A DNA stretch of 53,242 nt from Escherichia phage CF2. The notes beneath the pieces are model-generated. The model had not been told where the DNA came from. It saw only the letters and a program-made list of their open reading frames with translations, and searched no databases. Positions 15,501 through 47,981 of the stretch are shown in pieces. The first letter of the stretch is position 1. Every line of letters starts with the position of its first letter. The DNA lies in sequence record KY608966. The stretch is one strand, 5' to 3'. The position numbers were made by a program, and so were the translations under genes.

Positions 15501-18457
15501 TGCACACGATGTTGCTTAAAGACGGATCAGACCATCGAGCTAATGTCGAAAGCCTTATCGAAGGTCACCACCATTTTCTTGAGCGCAATACTGGCAGAAC
15601 TGACGACGCTACGCGTCAGCACTATATCTTCAATCCAGAAGGAGTAGTGTCGAACAACCGCCATTTTATTGCACACACCATGATGGAGTATCAACCTAAC
15701 GGTGATGCTCCGTCTGAAAGTCAGTCGCTGCTAATACTCGGCGAAATTCACGCGTACCTTGCTACTAAGGAACAGCGGTACCTTGACAAAGCAATTGAGT
15801 ACTTCAATGCTTACGTCAAGTACTATTACGAGGGGGACCCAATCCCTGATACTCCTCGTCGCTGGATCGCTAACTGGCTTTGTAATGGCAAAGAGCCTGT
15901 GCTAGCCAGCTTCCCAATCAACCCTGATTCACCAACACAAGGCGGCTATAAAAATGTGCCAGTTAAATTTGTTAACGGCAAAGCACAAATCCCTCATGGT
16001 TCTCCTTTCTGGGGCGAGTACCTGGATGTTGCTACTTGGGCCCACAGGGGACACATGGCTTGGCCTGCTATTAATGGTGGTGTCCGTGTTATTAAAAATA
16101 AAGTTGACTGGGACGATATTTACAACAATTATCGCATCACTACCATGCCAGCTGACCCGTGGAATCAGTTAGCCTGGATTGACTGGCCGAGGTATCTGGG
16201 TGAACCAAGCTACACTGTGGACTGGTCAGCAGCTGAACCTCCTGTACATCTCATCGAGTATATTGTTGCATGGACCAATAACAAGATTGGTGTTCTACCT
16301 GGCAAAAACGATGAGCTATGGGGAGGCGAGATTCTTGAGACTGGACTGCCTGACTCTCGCAGAGGTGAGATTCAGCTACGTGACCATACTATCAACGGTG
16401 TGTACCTGCTTAACTATGCTGTTAAGCTTCCTGTTGAACATGGTGGTTATTTGCTTAAGCGAAATGAAGTATGGCACAACAGACCGGTAAACGTTCCATT
16501 GTACGGCGAGCTTCAACGCGGTAATGCTGCTGATGCTGAGTTGTGGTTCTGTGACTGCTGCTATATGCTGTGGCGAATTACTAACGAGCAAAAGTATTAC
16601 AACGCTTGGCAAGCTGTCCTGTTTACACTGGAGGAGTATATTGACATCGATAAACAAGACCAGTTCTTCCGACAAGACACTCACGCGTCGTCTCCGTTTA
16701 CTGATGGCATCTCTTATGATTGGTCTTATCCTGAACTGGCACAAGCTATATATTCACGTGATGAAAATGGTTATATAGTTCTACGTCAGAACGAAAAAGC
16801 TCAATCATCTCTGGAGCAGCAGGCTGTATGGTTTAAGTGTAAGCCAACAGCTAAGATACGTACAGAAGTTGGTGGCAAAGATGATGCTGGTCAGAATATC
16901 AGTGTCAAGGTGGAAATGTACATGAACCGTGAAAAGGTTGACGTCGAGCAAAACATCTATCGTTTTGTCACACAGCTACCTGCTCTTGGTGCTTCACCTG
17001 CTAACTACGACATTCCATTAAGCGATTTTGTCGCAGGTACTAAGCCAGATGGTTCTGAGTATATCTTAGCTGATATTCGTTCATCCACTGACTATGGCAA
17101 TGCCACTACTGCAGTGTCTTACCGTACTGACATACTTGACAACAGACGTGGCAACACTGTCCGTATGACAATACCGGATAGTTCGTCAGGTGCCATTATA
17201 GGCTTTTGGCTACTGGAATCTTCCCAGGCACCTTTAAACTCGCTGACGTATACTTCTACAGGTCCGTTGTGCATCAAAGTAACTGACGCGCAAGGCTGGA
17301 GTTGGGTACGTGATTTACCTGCCGCACCAGGATGGGTAACTCAGCAGATTCGCACCTGGGAGTTCAGGCTGGCGTCATACCAGGAAAACACAGGTACACC
17401 ACCAGCTAGCCCACAATTCGGCGAGATTAAGCAGTTCTCGTTTGTACTGCCTGACGGCGTTAATACGTCGACAAGTATTAGCTGGTACTGTGTGAATGAT
17501 GTTCCGCCTCGCTATAACTGGCCAATTGGTTATACGATTAAGTATCGTCTTACTTTCTCGGCTGATAACCCGTACACAGCTAGGCTTGGCGACTGTACTG
17601 TGCTGGACTATGAGAATGATAACCTTGCTTACACGCCAGGTGTTATTCCGTTCTCCAACATTTATAACCCTGATTCTAAGCAGTTCGATGGTTGGCACGG
17701 TATACCTTACCCTGGCTATCAGTATCCGTTTGTCTTTACGCATGACGATACTGCAGCAGGTACAATCAGGCTGAACAACATGGTTAACTTTTTGTACGAT
17801 TCTCAGCAATGGTACTATAAGAAGTTCGGTCAGCTAGGTCCTGGTGCATCTGCTTTTATCTGGAACCGTTGGGATAACTTTAAATACGGTGTACCTGATA
17901 CGTTTACCATGTATCACTGGGGTAATGGTAGTGCATGGTCAGGTTACCAGCCTCGTGCTTACTTCTCCGCAGCACGTGGATGGTATGAGCTAGTAAACCG
18001 TGGTAAGCCGGTTCCGAGTAAGCTTATTGCTTATGTGGATAACTGGTCAAAATGGTTGCTTGACTTCATGGAAAGGTCAGGAGGTGTGTCGCCTTCTAAC
18101 TTCCCACAAGAAGGTGTTGCTCTGCCAGTCCCTTCAGACTTCACAGGTCACATGTGCGGGCTATGGCTTGCTGGTGCAGCTATGTCAGCCCTTTGTGGGT
18201 CAACAGTATCAGGACTGGATAAGCTGATGGACATGCTTGTCAATGAGCTGGAAGACCATTACGACATAACTGGTATTCCGGGGCATGTAATGGATGGTGG
18301 TTGGTCACCAGCGTTACGCCTTGAAACTGGTTCAGGACCTGAAAGCAACGCCATGTACTATGGTTTTTACTCTGGCGAAATATTACGAGGGTTGGGCTTA
18401 TACCTGCTGTACAAAAACAAAGGGGCTAAAGCAGATATTTATGATTTAGGCCCGTAA
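15500..18457 (+). CDS. Large (985 aa) virion-associated protein of unknown function
   Basis: Uninterrupted ORF coupled by TAATG. Rich in Trp and Tyr. I recognise no catalytic motif. Confidence 0.7.
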   Translation: MHTMLLKDGSDHRANVESLIEGHHHFLERNTGRTDDATRQHYIFNPEGVVSNNRHFIAHTMMEYQPNGDAPSESQSLLILGEIHAYLATKEQRYLDKAIEYFNAYVKYYYEGDPIPDTPRRWIANWLCNGKEPVLASFPINPDSPTQGGYKNVPVKFVNGKAQIPHGSPFWGEYLDVATWAHRGHMAWPAINGGVRVIKNKVDWDDIYNNYRITTMPADPWNQLAWIDWPRYLGEPSYTVDWSAAEPPVHLIEYIVAWTNNKIGVLPGKNDELWGGEILETGLPDSRRGEIQLRDHTINGVYLLNYAVKLPVEHGGYLLKRNEVWHNRPVNVPLYGELQRGNAADAELWFCDCCYMLWRITNEQKYYNAWQAVLFTLEEYIDIDKQDQFFRQDTHASSPFTDGISYDWSYPELAQAIYSRDENGYIVLRQNEKAQSSLEQQAVWFKCKPTAKIRTEVGGKDDAGQNISVKVEMYMNREKVDVEQNIYRFVTQLPALGASPANYDIPLSDFVAGTKPDGSEYILADIRSSTDYGNATTAVSYRTDILDNRRGNTVRMTIPDSSSGAIIGFWLLESSQAPLNSLTYTSTGPLCIKVTDAQGWSWVRDLPAAPGWVTQQIRTWEFRLASYQENTGTPPASPQFGEIKQFSFVLPDGVNTSTSISWYCVNDVPPRYNWPIGYTIKYRLTFSADNPYTARLGDCTVLDYENDNLAYTPGVIPFSNIYNPDSKQFDGWHGIPYPGYQYPFVFTHDDTAAGTIRLNNMVNFLYDSQQWYYKKFGQLGPGASAFIWNRWDNFKYGVPDTFTMYHWGNGSAWSGYQPRAYFSAARGWYELVNRGKPVPSKLIAYVDNWSKWLLDFMERSGGVSPSNFPQEGVALPVPSDFTGHMCGLWLAGAAMSALCGSTVSGLDKLMDMLVNELEDHYDITGIPGHVMDGGWSPALRLETGSGPESNAMYYGFYSGEILRGLGLYLLYKNKGAKADIYDLGP

Positions 18458-38485: not shown

Positions 38486-39078
38486 TAAAACAGTTCCTTT
38501 TGAGCCGGGTTAACGTGTGCGTCGATGATTGCCTGGATGTCAGGTGCTTTCCATCCCTCAGGCTTAACAATATCCTGACCGGACTTATGCTTGCTGTTGC
38601 TTGCATCAGGCTTAGCGCGTTCTTTCGCCATGTTAGCAGCCTGTACCGCATCCCATGCTGCGTCAAGTGGCCAGTTGTTGTTTGCACACCAGGTAATCAG
38701 GTGGATAATTAACTGGGCCAGACGGTCGCAATGAGTGTCTTCAGTATCCTTAACGTATACAATAAGGCCATCAGCATCGAAACGGTCCATAAATCCGCAT
38801 GGCGTAGTTAACAGAATCGGATACTCAAATTCGTTGGTGAACCATGCGGTCTGGTCATACAGGTATAACGTACCTGCAGCAATGTAAATTAAATCTACAA
38901 TACCGTCTAAGAAGCCAGCTTTGTCGCCGTCCTTCTTAGCTTGTTTAATTTCTTCCATCTCCTCAATAAGACGGTCGTAACGAAGCTTGAACTCAGGTTT
39001 ACCGCCTTGACTAACAGGCTTGAGGTCAAACTTCTCATGAAAAGCGGTAACGCCTGCAGCAATTTTACTGAATCGCAT
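38485..39078 (-). CDS. MazG-like nucleotide pyrophosphohydrolase
   Basis: 'RLIEEMEEIKQA..FLDGIVDLIYIAAG' (the EExxE...D..D pattern). AAGGAG lies 7 nt upstream. Confidence 0.65.
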   Translation of the reverse strand: MRFSKIAAGVTAFHEKFDLKPVSQGGKPEFKLRYDRLIEEMEEIKQAKKDGDKAGFLDGIVDLIYIAAGTLYLYDQTAWFTNEFEYPILLTTPCGFMDRFDADGLIVYVKDTEDTHCDRLAQLIIHLITWCANNNWPLDAAWDAVQAANMAKERAKPDASNSKHKSGQDIVKPEGWKAPDIQAIIDAHVNPAQKELF

Positions 39079-39463
39079 TTCGTAACTCCTTACAAACAGT
39101 TTCGATAAACTTACGTTTAATTTCTGTAGACCAGATAATATGACGAGCCTGTTCTAAAGTGTCCCAACGTTCTTTACCCACAGGAAAGGGAACAATGAAA
39201 AGGCCGGTACGGGATATGCGCTTGATAAACGGGAATTTACAGCGCATGGTTGTTTCAAACTTGATAAAGTTTGTTTGCACATCGCGTGTAAACTTGACCT
39301 TATCAAATTCATGTTCAAGAGTTTGAGCAATGTTGCATACTTCCTGGAAAGAAGATGCAGGCAAGTAATCTTCGCGGCCGACGGTGTTCACGTAGTCGAT
39401 TTGGCCTTCTAGCCGAAGTATCCAAATCCTGTAATAAGCTTCAGCAACACGTTGTAGGTTCAT
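39065..39463 (-). CDS. Hypothetical protein
   Basis: 132-aa ORF, first gene downstream of the promoter at 39490-39518. Confidence 0.55.
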   Translation of the reverse strand: MNLQRVAEAYYRIWILRLEGQIDYVNTVGREDYLPASSFQEVCNIAQTLEHEFDKVKFTRDVQTNFIKFETTMRCKFPFIKRISRTGLFIVPFPVGKERWDTLEQARHIIWSTEIKRKFIETVCKELRNAIQ

Positions 39464-39489: not shown

Positions 39490-39518
39490 ATTATACCACA
39501 TCACTCTCTAGTGGTAAA
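39490..39518 (-). promoter_or_regulatory. sigma70-type promoter TTTACC-17-(TGg)TATAAT
   Basis: The minus strand reads 'gctTTTACCactagagagtgatgTGgTATAAT'. Confidence 0.7.
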
Positions 39519-39537
39519 GCACTTTTTACGCTTCTGG

Positions 39538-39573
39538 TAAAAATAAAAAGGACCAGCGTTAACTGGTCCTTTT
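39538..39573 (-). terminator. Strong rho-independent terminator ending the structured RNA locus (bidirectional shape)
   Basis: Stem aggaccag/ctggtcct (39549-39556/39563-39570). The minus-sense downstream run is 'tttttattttt'. Confidence 0.85.
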
Positions 39574-39832
39574 GGCAGGGTGGCGTAAGGAGATACAAGG
39601 CATCGTAACTATGCAACCAGGCAGCGCATATGAGATTGGCCAAAAGATTTACCATTTTAATCCCCGCGACGAGACGAAAAGGAGGTGTCATCTAGTAGCC
39701 AATCACATATGCGTTACTTGCTGTGTGCTCTCACCGCGGAAAGTATAGAGCGTTGCACTTATCACACCGATGGAGTGGCAAAAGCACACAGCAAGTACAA
39801 CCTTAGTTGTGGTGTCTTAGCACCTGAGTTAT

Positions 39833-39841
39833 TGTGGATAA
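39833..39841 (-). other. Perfect DnaA-box consensus TTATCCACA (single copy)
   Basis: The plus strand reads tgtggataa at 39833-39841, inside the small hairpin gttat/ataac. Confidence 0.3.
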
Positions 39842-39956
39842 CCTGCACCCGACGGGTGTCAAAAAGATACGCCAAAACACCACAACTAAAATTGTGACCG
39901 CCGTCTACACCAGGCGCCTGGGGTCAAGGTAGCGAGCCAATACCCTTTTCAGCGTC

Positions 39957-39973
39957 GGAGGAATCGAACCTCA
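39957..39973 (-). other. tRNA T-arm-like hairpin (GAGG-TTCGATT-CCTC)
   Basis: The minus strand reads 'gaGGTTCGATTCCtc'. No 7-bp acceptor stem can be formed around it. Confidence 0.5.
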
Positions 39974-40007
39974 CACATCACGGCTTTTACCAAATCTCGG
40001 TCAGCGA

Positions 40008-40022
40008 GCAGAATTGAACTGC
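40008..40022 (-). other. Second T-arm-like hairpin (GCAG-TTCAATT-CTGC)
   Basis: 4-bp stem with a 7-nt TTCAATT loop, 49 nt upstream of the first T-arm-like hairpin. Confidence 0.4.
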
Positions 40023-40101
40023 ATTCACTGGACACCCTCACTGTTTCAACACACCAGGCTTAATTGATTGTTGATAAGAAGAGAGATGTAAGGATGTCCA
40101 T

Positions 40102-40129
40102 TGAATGCACCTCCGTAGAGGTGCGTTCA
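40102..40129 (-). promoter_or_regulatory. Stable hairpin with cUACGg tetraloop just after the 40141 stop
   Basis: gcacctc-tacg-gaggtgc in the minus sense, extended by tgaa/ttca. There is no U-run. Confidence 0.45.
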
Positions 40130-40140
40130 GATCAGCGCTA

Positions 40141-40608
40141 TTATTCAGCAACTTCTTCGTTGTCGCCTTCGATCGCGCCAGCCAGTTTAGCAGCTTCAGC
40201 TTTAGCAGCTTCTGCTTTCTGGCGAGCTTTTTCAGCTTTCTCTTCAGCTTTGCGAATCTGCTCAGCAGCTTTCGCTTCGGCTTTTTCAGCTTTGATGCGA
40301 GCACGCTCTTCAGCTTTACGCTGTTTTTCAGCGGCTTTAGCAGCATCGCGTTCTGCTTTAGCGGTATCAACACGCTTAGCCAGAACTTTACCAGTGGCTT
40401 TACGCCAGTAGGTCAGCTGGGAAGAAACAGTACCACGGGACATTTCGGTAGTGGCAACAACTTCGTCCATAACGTCAGAGCTGGACTTGCCTTCTTCATG
40501 GGCTTTATCAGCCAGGTCCCATACGTAACGTGCGCCAGTACCAGCTGCCGGATACAGTACGCCGTTAACTTCTTCTTTACCAGTTACAAAAGTCAGTTTC
40601 TCACTCAT
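40141..40608 (-). CDS. Putative DNA-binding protein with Ala/Lys/Glu-rich (histone H1 / KfrA-like) tail
   Basis: 155 aa from ATG 40608; the upstream ATG 40668 lies inside the promoter. The tail reads 'AKAERDAAKAAEKQRKAEERARIKAEKAEAKAAEQIRKAEEKAEKARQKAEAAKAEAAK'. Confidence 0.55.
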   Translation of the reverse strand: MSEKLTFVTGKEEVNGVLYPAAGTGARYVWDLADKAHEEGKSSSDVMDEVVATTEMSRGTVSSQLTYWRKATGKVLAKRVDTAKAERDAAKAAEKQRKAEERARIKAEKAEAKAAEQIRKAEEKAEKARQKAEAAKAEAAKLAGAIEGDNEEVAE

Positions 40609-40656: not shown

Positions 40657-40685
40657 AATATACGTCATTTAAAAGAGTGTGTAAA
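40657..40685 (-). promoter_or_regulatory. sigma70-type promoter TTTACA-17-TATATT
   Basis: The minus strand reads 'gtgTTTACAcactcttttaaatgacgTATATT'. Confidence 0.6.
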
Positions 40686-40936: not shown

Positions 40937-42593
40937 AGCCGTTTCCCCAGTCGTAGTTCATGATTTGTGGGTAGGGTCGTTTAATCCATACCTTGATGCG
41001 CTTAGGAATAGCCAGCTCACCCTTACGGCGGATAAACTCATCGCATGTTTCAGGCGGTTCTGTTCCTGCAGCATTACGCCACCAGGCGTCTGCCATTTGC
41101 TTAGCATTACCATGGGCCTCTATATTTACCCATGTTGTATACACTTCCAGGTTTGAGTAGTACACAACCTTTATACTGTCAGGTCGTCCCTGCTTCTGGA
41201 ATAAAGAATAGTTTACCAGCGTAACATCTTTATCCACAACACGAAGCTGACCGTTAGTCATTACCTCTTCTTCTGATGAAGTGAAGGCAATAGCAGGTCC
41301 GTTAACTGTAAACTCAAACTCATGCCCGCACATCGGATATACACCATTCTCGTCTGGCGTACTTCCTTTAGCCGGATGCTTACACGTACGAGCAGCATAG
41401 CCACTTACCTGGTGACAGATAGGACACTCTTTACCGCCAGGTGTTTTCTCTGACCGTTTCTTTTTCTTCTTACCAAGACGTGGCGGAACAGCCGGGTCGT
41501 CAATAGGTCCAAGGTCAATGGTGTTAGACGTGAAGTCCATAACAAGACAGTCATGCTTGCCAGGCGCTGTACGTAATCCTCGACCGAGTATCTGCACCCA
41601 CAAAGCAACAGACGTGGACGGGCGCAAGATGCCGAGCATATCAATTTCAGGATAGTCAAATCCTGTCGTCAATACGCTTACGTTTACACAGACCCGTGCT
41701 CGTCCGCTTGTAAACTCTTCCAGTGCGGCTTCACGTTCTTTCTTTGTAAGACCGCCATGCACAACTACAGTCTGCCAACCTCGCAGATTAAACTCGTCTG
41801 CTATGTTGTGGGCGTGCTCAACACTTGTGGCAAATACAAGAACGTGGTTCCTGTCTTTACCGTAGTGCATCATCTCACGAATAGCCGCGACTGTTATACT
41901 ATGTTGGTTGGCTACCTTCTCAAGCTCTGACGGTATGTAGTCACCCATCCTTTCACCAACATTACTGGTGTCAATCTTGGTTAACACTTTCTTGTTGACC
42001 AGGCGTGACAGGAAGCCTTCATTTACCAACCTGGTGAATGCGTCAGGTGTTGTAAGGTCATAGCATATGTCGGTAAATATACCACAGTCCAGCAAGTGAC
42101 CACCTGCAAGGCGATATGGAGTTGCTGTGAGTCCTGTTACCTTTACCTTAGGATTAAGCTCTTTGAAGTGAGCAATAACCTTACGGTATGTTGTTTCAGA
42201 CTTCTCAGGAACAAGATGGGCTTCGTCAATGAATATAAGATTAAACTTACCTGCTTCTTCCAGGTTCTTAATAATTGACTGTACCGATGCTACAACGATA
42301 CGGCCTGAAAAGTCTTTATGTCCTGCACCTGAAGAGTAGATTGATACTGGTGCTTGTGGCCAGTGACGAACAATTGCTTTGGCGTCTTGTTCAACCAGCT
42401 CCTTGACGTGAGTCAGTATAAGAATACGCTGACGGGGATAGCTGGTAAGAATATCCTTCATCAGCATACCAAGCACAGGTGATTTGCCTGAACCTGTTGG
42501 CATGACAATAAGTGGGTTACCACTATAAGAATTGAAGTACGACCACCAAGCTGTGACCGCTTCTTGTTGATACCAGCGAGCTTCAAAAGCCAT
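40923..42593 (-). CDS. SF2 DEAD/DEAH-box DNA helicase with C-terminal zinc ribbon
   Basis: Motif I 'MPTGSGKS', motif II 'FIDEAHLV', motif III 'GLTATPYR' and 'CPICHQ..CKHP'. Confidence 0.85.
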   Translation of the reverse strand: MAFEARWYQQEAVTAWWSYFNSYSGNPLIVMPTGSGKSPVLGMLMKDILTSYPRQRILILTHVKELVEQDAKAIVRHWPQAPVSIYSSGAGHKDFSGRIVVASVQSIIKNLEEAGKFNLIFIDEAHLVPEKSETTYRKVIAHFKELNPKVKVTGLTATPYRLAGGHLLDCGIFTDICYDLTTPDAFTRLVNEGFLSRLVNKKVLTKIDTSNVGERMGDYIPSELEKVANQHSITVAAIREMMHYGKDRNHVLVFATSVEHAHNIADEFNLRGWQTVVVHGGLTKKEREAALEEFTSGRARVCVNVSVLTTGFDYPEIDMLGILRPSTSVALWVQILGRGLRTAPGKHDCLVMDFTSNTIDLGPIDDPAVPPRLGKKKKKRSEKTPGGKECPICHQVSGYAARTCKHPAKGSTPDENGVYPMCGHEFEFTVNGPAIAFTSSEEEVMTNGQLRVVDKDVTLVNYSLFQKQGRPDSIKVVYYSNLEVYTTWVNIEAHGNAKQMADAWWRNAAGTEPPETCDEFIRRKGELAIPKRIKVWIKRPYPQIMNYDWGNGYGAR

Positions 42594-47694: not shown

Positions 47695-47981
47695 TTACGT
47701 TTACCTTTACGTTTGTGTAGCGGAGTATATGTTTTCTTTGACACGCCAAACATGGCCGCATATGTACCGACTTCTTTCTTTGTTGGCTTATCCACAATCT
47801 CGTCAATCACGATTAAGTCATGGTTGATATTGCGAAAGACTTCAGCCGCTCTTTTCTCAACAGGAGTAAAGTCAATAACCAGCTCTTTGCCTATCAGGCT
47901 TTCTTTGAACTTGTCAAACAGCCATTTGTCTCGCGGACCAGGATTGCCCATAAACATAACACGCATCTGCTTATTGTCCAT
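47691..47981 (-). CDS. Hypothetical protein with basic C-terminus
   Basis: 96-aa ORF ending '..HKRKGKRK'. Confidence 0.5.
   Translation of the reverse strand: MDNKQMRVMFMGNPGPRDKWLFDKFKESLIGKELVIDFTPVEKRAAEVFRNINHDLIVIDEIVDKPTKKEVGTYAAMFGVSKKTYTPLHKRKGKRK

Follow-up and report, generated by a model that had tools for sequence, protein, structure and literature searches.

The window analysed here is the whole 53,242-nucleotide (nt) sequence of Escherichia phage CF2 (KY608966), a Rosemountvirus genome, and our subject is an untranslated, structured stretch on its minus strand (39546-40140, GC content about 0.46). We interpret this locus as a non-coding RNA cassette whose core, at 39895-40026 on the minus strand, is the gene for a small RNA of about 130 nt that derives from a transfer RNA (tRNA) and mimics the tRNA core, a reading to which we assign a probability of roughly 55%. 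The core is a discrete 132-nt element with two T-arm-like hairpins, present as a single copy in the window. A first-pass annotation, made from the sequence alone, had reported these hairpins (GCAG-TTCAATT-CTGC at 40008-40022 and GAGG-TTCGATT-CCTC at 39958-39972) as separate features of a possible tRNA-like RNA. The idea is strengthened by the widespread family described below, while the hairpins turn out to be parts of one element rather than isolated structures.

Anatomy and family of the double-T-arm element

Read 5' to 3' on the minus strand, the element begins with T-arm A (40008-40022, GCAG-UUCAAUU-CUGC), which has a 4-bp stem, a 7-nt T-loop and a closing pair of the G53-C61 type. The linker UCGCU (40003-40007), the 5' strand GACC of helix P1 (39999-40002) and a D-loop-like strand of the GAGAU..GGUAAA type, GAGAUUUGGUAAAA (39985-39998), come next. 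They are followed by arm B, the second T-arm-like hairpin (39958-39972, GAGG-UUCGAUU-CCUC), and by a hairpin GGGU...ACCC (39921-39945) with the conserved GGCUCGCUACC in its loop. Only the Rosemount, Loughborough and fHy-type versions have this last hairpin, whose stem varies as ACCGG/CCGGU, ACAGG/CCUGU, GGCAG/CUGCC and GGCGG/CCGCC. The element is closed by the 3' strand of P1, GGUC (39896-39899), which pairs with 39999-40002 to form a 4-bp long-range helix of the form NNCC/GGNN.

Both 7-nt loops match the T-loop pattern G-UUCRANY-C, with U at position 6 in the window, and the element contains no acceptor stem, CCA end or anticodon arm. P1 has the size of a D-stem, and the A, G, GG and A of the D-loop-like strand would correspond to positions A14, R15, G18, G19 and A21 of a tRNA. 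With a T-arm placed just 5' of a D-type strand, the element appears to hold the parts of a tRNA elbow without acceptor or anticodon stem. Folded in isolation, it has a minimum free energy (MFE) no better than that of shuffled sequence (z = +0.5 to +1.6), as expected for a tRNA-like core because tRNA folds rest on tertiary contacts; even so, T-arm A, P1 and arm B reappear in the MFE or centroid folds. Two other layouts were rejected. A minihelix formed by stacking CAGUGA/UCGCUG on T-arm A is not kept in relatives, and a permuted tRNA would need an acceptor strand that complements UCGCUGA, for which no partner was found.

The stretch from GAAUGCAG to CGGUCA is conserved in all related lineages that carry the two T-loop hairpins at this site (type B loci, see below), despite flanking-protein identity of about 40%. 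A 19-nt core, CTGCTCGCTRRCCGAGATT, matched 18 stretches in IMG/VR, 13 of them from phages with unrelated gene and GC content. The loose pattern GCTCGCTNNCCGAGAT was replaced by one containing the T-loop because its matches were mostly chance occurrences in GC-rich coding DNA, and the strict pattern GTTCRAN{6,7}TCGCTNNCCGAGAT was found in 79 IMG/VR contigs. From a 27-sequence MAFFT alignment, which included close relatives of the window, we built a covariance model, R1. This model finds exactly one copy in the window (39895-40026, minus strand; 99.2 bits, E ~1e-25), aligned over its full length (1-122), and it recovers the held-out members L039, L036 and L050 at 68.5, 59.2 and 61.6 bits. Over the fetched loci it gave 74 matches, 66 of them distinct, that are 72-137 nt long with GC content of 0.40-0.68.

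Two members were detected by R1 without an exact match to the search pattern, namely in Rhizobium phage RHph_N38 (59.6 bits; just downstream of tRNA-Gln, with tRNA-Pro nearby) and in Cellulophaga phage phi19:3 (50.2 bits; just downstream of tRNA-Cys). The element thus occurs in phages of Gamma- and Alphaproteobacteria and of Bacteroidota. For 14 of the 66 distinct copies, ARAGORN calls a tRNA no more than 60 nt away. Among these calls, some overlap the element, and eight are tRNA genes beside it, of which six end 1-2 nt upstream. A U-run directly follows 11 copies. None of the family copies is annotated in the GenBank records inspected.

The helices covary across the family. In the MAFFT alignment A3, 95.6% of cells are paired, compared with 32-50% on sliding the partners by 1-3 columns, and the observed covariation score was not matched by any of 500 shuffles; the variable pairs of P1 occur as GC19/AU3/GU2/UA2 and GC15/AU12. 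The larger alignment A5, which leans towards the structure because it was fitted to R1, has 99.1% of cells paired and P1 pairs of GC43/UA11/AU4/GU4/CG2 and GC34/AU30. One pair of the T-arm A stem is found as GC38/AU18/GU6/CG3. The stem of arm B covaries strongly even among the Rosemount-like phages, changing from GAGG/CCUC to CUGGG/CCCAG in S144, GCCUG/CAGGC in fHy and ACCGG/CCGGU in L014. In phi19:3 (L223, 600-720) the CC/GG of P1, constant elsewhere, is possibly replaced by UAUU...AAUA, a double compensatory change at a place where the covariance model's alignment of the 3' strand is uncertain.

A shared tRNA slot and its flanking hairpins

The locus is 99.9% identical to that of Escherichia phage BEC1-17 and 99.3% identical to that of Salmonella phage BP63. 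The flanking gene is common to about 60 sequenced phages, and 16 more divergent loci were gathered by protein searches and contig look-ups. Type A, with seven loci including that of Erwinia phage SOI901 (L004, L009, L023-L025, L030, L031), has tRNA-Pro(UGG) and tRNA-Gln(UUG) at the exact slot of the element. Type B comprises the window, the Loughboroughviruses (S144, ZCSE2, SE4), the fHy-Eco03 group and several metagenomic phages, which have the two T-loop hairpins instead. Type C, with two loci, has neither tRNAs nor T-arms. R1 detects no element in type A or type C loci. All three types share a hairpin after the stop codon of the upstream gene, a long hairpin called I3, a CU-rich motif (recognized by eye) and the terminator. 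Since the types are interleaved on a neighbour-joining tree of the 132-aa flanking protein (39065-39463), the slot exchanges cassettes between related phages, either by recombination or by repeated replacement.

Some details of these records deserve mention. In one type A locus, L031, I3 and tRNA-Pro are separated by about 190 nt of additional inserted sequence, and the Pro(UGG)/Gln(UUG) pair of the seven sister loci also adjoins the element in the unrelated N4-like Rhizobium phage RHph_N38 (L224). Two records of 52-53 kb filed as E. coli 'plasmids' seem to be the genome of the phage, and the same Rosemountvirus sequence turns up under the label 'Listeria phage' and in a contig from a Bacillota metagenome-assembled genome. 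In phage SPHG1 the locus is scattered over seven places, which suggests mis-assembly (records concerned: NZ_CP067310.1, NZ_JBVNBN010000003.1, PP583539.1, JAEWER010000021.1 and MW413353.1). A host or plasmid origin of the hairpins was rejected, as the sole E. coli and plasmid matches are whole-phage records. At the window copy nothing is annotated in GenBank, nor by the Prokaryotic Genome Annotation Pipeline in the two 'plasmid' records.

Upstream of the untranslated stretch lies a gene for a 155-aa Ala/Lys-rich protein (40141-40608, minus strand) from a PHROG of unknown function. Its sigma-70-like promoter, TTTACA-17-TATATT (40657-40685, minus strand), is annotated as a promoter at the same site in BP63. 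It is also the sole promoter-like site 5' of the locus, so that in the simplest view the stretch forms the 3' portion of the Ala/Lys-rich unit, and the RNA is probably co-transcribed with this gene, as had been proposed. The unit is closed by an intrinsic terminator (39546-39573, minus strand), a GC-rich hairpin with a 12-bp stem followed by a U-run (TATTTTT); this terminator and the promoter at 40657-40685 agree with the first-pass annotation. Past the terminator follow the next promoter (39490-39518) and the conserved gene for the 132-aa protein, which also belongs to a PHROG of unknown function.

RNAfold gives the minus strand of the locus an MFE of -246.6 kcal/mol, with z = -10.05 against shuffled sequence, while the plus strand is far less exceptional (z = -3.93). 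Together with the unconserved open reading frames (ORFs) discussed below, this bears out the earlier view of a non-coding locus structured on the minus strand. The three inverted repeats reported before are present as helix 1 (I2, 39797-39821/39871-39895), helix 2 (I4, perfect, 39715-39729/39783-39797) and helix 3 (I1, 39618-39648/39690-39720); the further hairpins at 40102-40129 and 40020-40109 had been overlooked. Among near-identical phages, substitutions and 1-nt indels are located in the interiors of the helices and leave the stems unaltered, and substitutions within stems yield G.U pairs on the minus strand only, which argues that the flanking hairpins are real structures at the RNA level. 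The covariation check proposed with the first-pass annotation was run and came out positive: relatives retain the stems via compensatory and wobble changes. The flanking hairpins are lineage-specific additions around the conserved element, and the three long helices are not the core for which they had been taken.

Helix 1 (39797-39895, minus strand) has a stem of up to 25 bp around two small hairpins and occurs in no groups other than Rosemount, Loughborough and fHy; L014, L022, L034 and all relatives of types A and C lack it. Seven of its pairs show compensatory double changes and many pairs are G.U. In the fHy-Eco03 group the helix 1 module lies 5' of the element, not 3', with a conserved interior and a stem that has diverged yet remains paired. 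One of the inner hairpins, GUUAU-CCACA-AUAAC, contains the DnaA-box sequence TTATCCACA (39833-39841) as its 5' strand plus loop, and its stem tolerates an A-to-G change that gives a G.U pair. The idea that helix 1 is a mobile element found elsewhere was rejected, as IMG/VR matches to CAGGTTATCCACAATAAC outside the phage group are coding sequence.

Helix 2 (39715-39797, minus strand), a perfect stem of 14-15 bp with a 53-nt interior, is common to the Loughboroughviruses, in which helix 2 changes produce U.G or G.U pairs solely on the minus strand, and it is likewise absent from L014, L022 and L034. Helix 3 (39618-39720, minus strand) has a 16-bp core stem with one mismatch and is restricted to Rosemountviruses. 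Its interior, variable and with 1-nt indels within a constant stem, holds GACACCUCCUUU (39678-39689), where the anti-Shine-Dalgarno (anti-SD)-like string GACACCTCCTTT had been noticed. This CCUCCU is present as described and is confined to Rosemountviruses; the CU-rich motif that crosses lineages is another one, CUCCUU at 39587-39592 (minus strand), 14-19 nt upstream of the terminator in the window. A YCCUU-type motif can be seen by eye in 22 of 22 distinct tails, 15-30 nt before the terminator and in any locus type, and a stricter scripted CU pattern matched ten of the 22.

At the 5' side, the post-stop hairpin GCACCUC-UACG-GAGGUGC (I7, 40102-40129, minus strand) directly follows the stop codon and has no U-run. 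It is kept in all lineages with compensatory changes, for example as GCUCCUC/GAGGAGC or GCCCCU/AGGGGC. I3 (40020-40109, minus strand) has a stem of about 20 bp, the shape of an RNase III substrate, and an interior that carries GCCUGGUGUGUUG. All 22 distinct variants of I3 fold to the same long stem closing with CAUUC...GAAUG, with many covarying and G.U pairs, and the hairpin occurs in element-bearing, tRNA-bearing and empty loci alike. A motif GCCUGGUGYGUUGG(UGUA), at 40045-40060 in the window, is conserved within the single-stranded interior of a long hairpin in every lineage, and the hairpin that hosts it varies. In the window this is I3; type A loci (such as L004 and L009), type C loci and L022 have the motif in a distinct hairpin placed behind the tRNAs. 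A search of the phage for targets complementary to GCCUGGUGUGUUG or GACACCUCCUUU gave matches at chance level. I3 (about 20 bp) and helix 1 (up to 25 bp) reach the roughly two helical turns of RNase III substrates, and the stems of helices 2 and 3 have only 14-16 bp. Judged by their stem lengths, the flanking hairpins could be RNase III substrates, and they probably act as processing or stability elements.

Possible functions and alternative explanations

A mechanism can be proposed in which the primary transcript would be cut at the flanking long hairpins, whose 14-25-bp stems resemble RNase III sites, and by tRNA-processing nucleases, to leave a stable tRNA-like RNA. The released RNA would present a tRNA elbow, with a T-loop docked on the GG strand, that can be neither decoded nor charged. 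This elbow may bind a universally conserved factor that recognizes the tRNA core and so serve as a decoy, sponge or adaptor during infection. Candidate partners are RNase P, TruB/TrmA-type enzymes, a tRNA site of the ribosome, a factor of the stringent response or a defence nuclease that targets tRNA. A universal partner is suggested because the element spans hosts from three bacterial classes, and a host factor because no protein gene recurs beside it. The conserved CU-rich tail and the terminator possibly form a separate small RNA (sRNA) derived from the 3' end.

A more far-reaching and quite tentative proposal is that the element is the founding example from a cultured coliphage of a widespread, unnamed class of 'elbow-only' phage tRNA mimics with two T-arms, interchangeable with tRNA genes and capturing a host factor that recognizes tRNA. 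The target might then be a tRNA-cleaving anti-phage nuclease, which would be absorbed or blinded, or a factor associated with tRNA processing or the ribosome. The element could also be a two-state RNA through the alternative P1 pairing described next.

Several points weigh against our reading as a tRNA-core mimic. The arm B loop of the close relatives L002, L003, L022 and L034 breaks the C56 rule (UUUGAGU, UUGGAUU), while it is canonical in unrelated phages (UUCGAAU or UUCAAAU); arm B may have been kept in the Rosemount-like group with a relaxed T-loop chemistry. P1 is only 4 bp long, and covariation also links its second position to the nucleotide that follows GAGAU (AU22/GC21/GU14/other 9), within an alternative helix UCGCUNN/nnGGURA that joins columns 24-30 and 38-45 of alignment A5 (39992-40007 in the window). 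Since two mutually exclusive pairings are both partly supported, the fold may differ from our model or switch between two forms, and the dual pairing could reflect a conformational switch or a base triple. The lean of A5 noted above counts here too, and the invariance of UCGCU and CCGAGAU is partly an ascertainment bias because members were gathered by sequence pattern; RHph_N38 and phi19:3 already deviate from it. No protein gene recurs beside the element, as judged from the BP63 annotation and the neighbouring ORFs listed in unrelated phages. We found no description of the element in the literature, and a 2023 catalogue of 10,006 candidate phage RNAs (PMC10690425) may include it. Finally, the role of a tRNA-core mimic is deduced purely from sequence and predicted structure.

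The main rival to the tRNA-mimic reading, which we consider a less probable but serious option, is that the element and hairpins are only cis-acting processing or stability signals for RNases P, Z, E and III, a form of tRNA-like punctuation that substitutes for the sister tRNAs. Cuts there would separate the upstream messenger RNA (mRNA) from the downstream RNA and protect the 3' end of the mRNA. Such a role agrees with the position of the element in the slot of tRNA-Pro and tRNA-Gln and directly at tRNA 3' ends in other phages, with the RNase III-like shape of the 14-25-bp stems, and with the conservation of I3, with its stem of about 20 bp and internal loop, in all locus types including empty ones. 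However, many copies elsewhere stand alone and end in a U-run with no mRNA to process, and the element lacks an acceptor-like stem by which RNase P or Z could measure. The conservation of single-stranded UCGCU and GAGAU..GGUAAA also exceeds what a cleavage signal needs, and the empty type C loci manage without the element.

It is rather improbable that the locus is essentially an anti-SD riboregulator, that is, a 3'-end sRNA with CU motif, terminator hairpin and U-tail (plus the CCUCCU of helix 3 in Rosemountviruses) that pairs with SD sequences and represses translation, the remainder being a scaffold. The YCCUU-type motif seen in all 22 tails, the second CCUCCU within helix 3 and the U-run terminator that follows would fit such an sRNA. 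Yet a CU motif of 5-6 nt is weak evidence, no specific phage target emerged beyond generic SD sequences, and the helix 3 copy is lineage-specific with surroundings that vary by indels. The conserved tRNA-like element would also be left unexplained. As a side function, an anti-SD sRNA from the CU-rich tail could be compatible with the tRNA-mimic reading.

Decay of a tRNA cluster, in which the T-arms would be non-functional remains of tRNA-Pro and tRNA-Gln, had been named in the first-pass annotation as a finding that would overturn its proposal, and on position alone it comes close to applying. Sister phages hold tRNA-Pro and tRNA-Gln at the exact position, T-arm A resembles the tRNA-Pro T-arm GCAGGUUCGAGUCCUGC, and RHph_N38 has the order tRNA-Pro, tRNA-Gln, element. 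We nevertheless reject it as very unlikely because the same architecture, with covarying helices, is present in at least 79 unrelated contigs. Within the group the element is conserved across lineages whose flanking protein is about 40% identical, and its stem substitutions are compensatory. An ancestry from a tRNA, possibly of class II, is plausible; loss of function is not.

The same low standing applies to a role at the level of DNA, with the hairpins as single-stranded or cruciform structures of a DnaA-using origin or priming site. The 53-kb genome has four perfect DnaA boxes TTATCCACA, at 18034-18042 (minus), 39833-39841 (minus), 41230-41238 (plus) and 47788-47796 (plus), against 0.49 expected and with none of 100 shuffles reaching four. 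The box at 39833-39841, correctly reported before as the single perfect one in the locus, is conserved in three genera and lies within the replication gene block. It is, however, a lone box in a small hairpin that accepts an A-to-G change to G.U, in a helix that, as noted, is missing from L014, L022, L034 and every type A or C relative. The strand-skew switch maps to about 34 kb, not here, the GC content of the locus is about 0.46, and the strand-asymmetric wobble pairs and the family-wide tRNA-like element point to RNA. The phage may use host DnaA somewhere, with the box of this locus incidental to an RNA hairpin, and the origin-associated role once suggested is not upheld. Least credible of all is that the locus encodes small proteins, such as a 66-aa ORF (39491-39691) or the short hypothetical proteins that several GenBank records annotate here. 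These annotated ORFs differ between records and are not conserved, and 1-nt indels among near-identical phages disrupt the ORFs of the locus. The 66-aa ORF has no SD sequence and crosses the terminator and the next promoter, and neither it nor the other locus ORFs belong to a Pfam or PHROG family.

Rosemount- and Loughborough-type phages are being developed for biocontrol of Salmonella and E. coli and have been described as being without tRNA genes (PMC7432712, PMC9343928). Our results indicate that they do carry a conserved tRNA-like RNA gene missed by standard annotation. Given its presence in phages that infect at least three bacterial classes, its location in tRNA arrays and its exchange with genuine tRNAs, the element is probably part of the contest between phage and host over tRNA function, which includes tRNA-cleaving defences, tRNA repair and translation control. 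The window copy resides in a genetically tractable coliphage, which makes a widespread orphan RNA directly testable.

Comparison with known RNAs

While tRNA mimics as such are known, the architecture of this element is absent from Rfam 15, from tRNA finders and from the GenBank records inspected. ARAGORN calls no tRNA or transfer-messenger RNA (tmRNA) in the window and no tRNA in L001-L003, and the Rfam 15 tRNA model has no match in the window at E<=10, in agreement with the earlier judgement that this is not a normal tRNA gene. The best Rfam 15 match, mir-957 at 23 bits against a threshold of 66, reflects a hairpin shape only; with no match at threshold, the locus belongs to no Rfam 15 family, whereas a clear match to a known family would have spoken against the first proposal. 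For unrelated family members, Rfam matches only the adjacent tRNAs.

The element resembles ordinary phage tRNAs in its use of the slot of the sister tRNA-Pro and tRNA-Gln and in its T-loop and D-loop signatures. It differs from them, and from class II tRNAs, in having no 7-bp acceptor stem, discriminator, CCA or anticodon-type loop with purine 37; by eye, an acceptor strand finds no partner, and no anticodon loop with U33 and purine 37 was found. Arm B was considered as an anticodon arm, as it would read CGA, UGA or GGA (Ser) in close relatives and has an upstream UGRCCGAG..GGU similar to a class II D-arm. This was rejected in view of the canonical T-loop in unrelated members, the non-purine at position 37 and the missing acceptor stem. 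T-arm A as the leftover 3' half of tRNA-Pro was also rejected, as the same arm with UCGCU..CCGAGAU occurs in unrelated phages. In the GC-rich members L136, L186, L207 and L208, ARAGORN forces a class II tRNA-Leu(CAA) or tRNA-Ser(CGA) over the element, with arm A as anticodon arm, UCGCUNN/nnGGURA as variable arm and arm B as T-arm, and with mismatched acceptor and D arms. These calls suggest a class II tRNA ancestry, a systematic mis-annotation of the family as tRNA, or a two-state fold.

Like the tRNA-like domain of tmRNA, which phages sometimes carry, the element would be a tRNA mimic with a T-arm and an analogue of a degenerate D-loop. It differs in having no acceptor stem with G3-U70, no tag frame and no pseudoknots, and neither ARAGORN nor the Rfam tmRNA models find a standard or permuted tmRNA in the window.

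A parallel in layout is offered by the YrlA-type Y RNAs of bacteria and phages, which have a tRNA-like effector domain (PMC4201824, bioRxiv 10.1101/312249). Both are non-decoding tRNA mimics, present also in phages, with a T-arm and a GG-containing D-type loop and with no free CCA or anticodon loop. Both also place the T-arm first and the D-type segment next, as in a circularly permuted tRNA (PMC4201824); in the window a UUCRA T-loop arm (40008-40022) is followed by the GG segment GAGAUUUGGUAAAA. YrlA has a closed acceptor-like hairpin between T and D arms and a Ro60-binding stem GNCGAAN0-1G, and it adjoins rsr. Our element has the 5-nt UCGCU in place of the acceptor hairpin, takes the closing strand of its D-type helix from the RNA's 3' end, and contains a second T-arm as an insertion. 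Only UCGCU lies between the arms, and a possible 3-4-bp UCG/CGA hairpin would overlap the covarying P1 strand. The Ro60 motif was not seen by eye upstream of T-arm A in the window, and compact members start 1-2 nt after a tRNA. No TROVE protein, RtcB or other RNA enzyme is present in the BP63 RefSeq annotation, an observation that covers annotated genes and not all ORFs. With the closed acceptor hairpin, the Ro60 motif and a neighbouring rsr all missing, identity with YrlA was rejected.

Long RNase III hairpins are a feature of phage early transcripts, such as the R-sites of T7 and the N leader of lambda. The flanking hairpins resemble these in their stems of about 20 bp, their internal loops and their location between units of a polycistronic phage transcript, and here they are placed right after a stop codon and beside tRNA-type genes. 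Unlike simple RNase III sites, they enclose interiors of 41-53 nt with conserved sequence and small hairpins.

Another comparison is with the T4 RNAs rnaC and rnaD (species 1 and 2), which are small stable RNAs of unknown function that end a phage tRNA cluster. T4 rnaC ends in a canonical T-arm, and rnaD contains UCGCUACCGGUAAG, which resembles motifs of the element. Homology is not supported, as R1 reaches no more than 9.3 bits on the T4 tRNA region, with bare T-loop matches only. We also note that rnaD (L170, 2054-2172, minus strand), to which R1 gives no match, has GGGUCGCUACCGGUAAG, similar to the UCGCU..GGUAAG core and to the GGCUCGCUACC loop (39928-39938). The resemblance of rnaD may be a coincidence or a very distant kinship. 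In either case, the element described here may help to illuminate the role of stable non-tRNA RNAs in phage tRNA clusters, of which rnaC and rnaD are examples.

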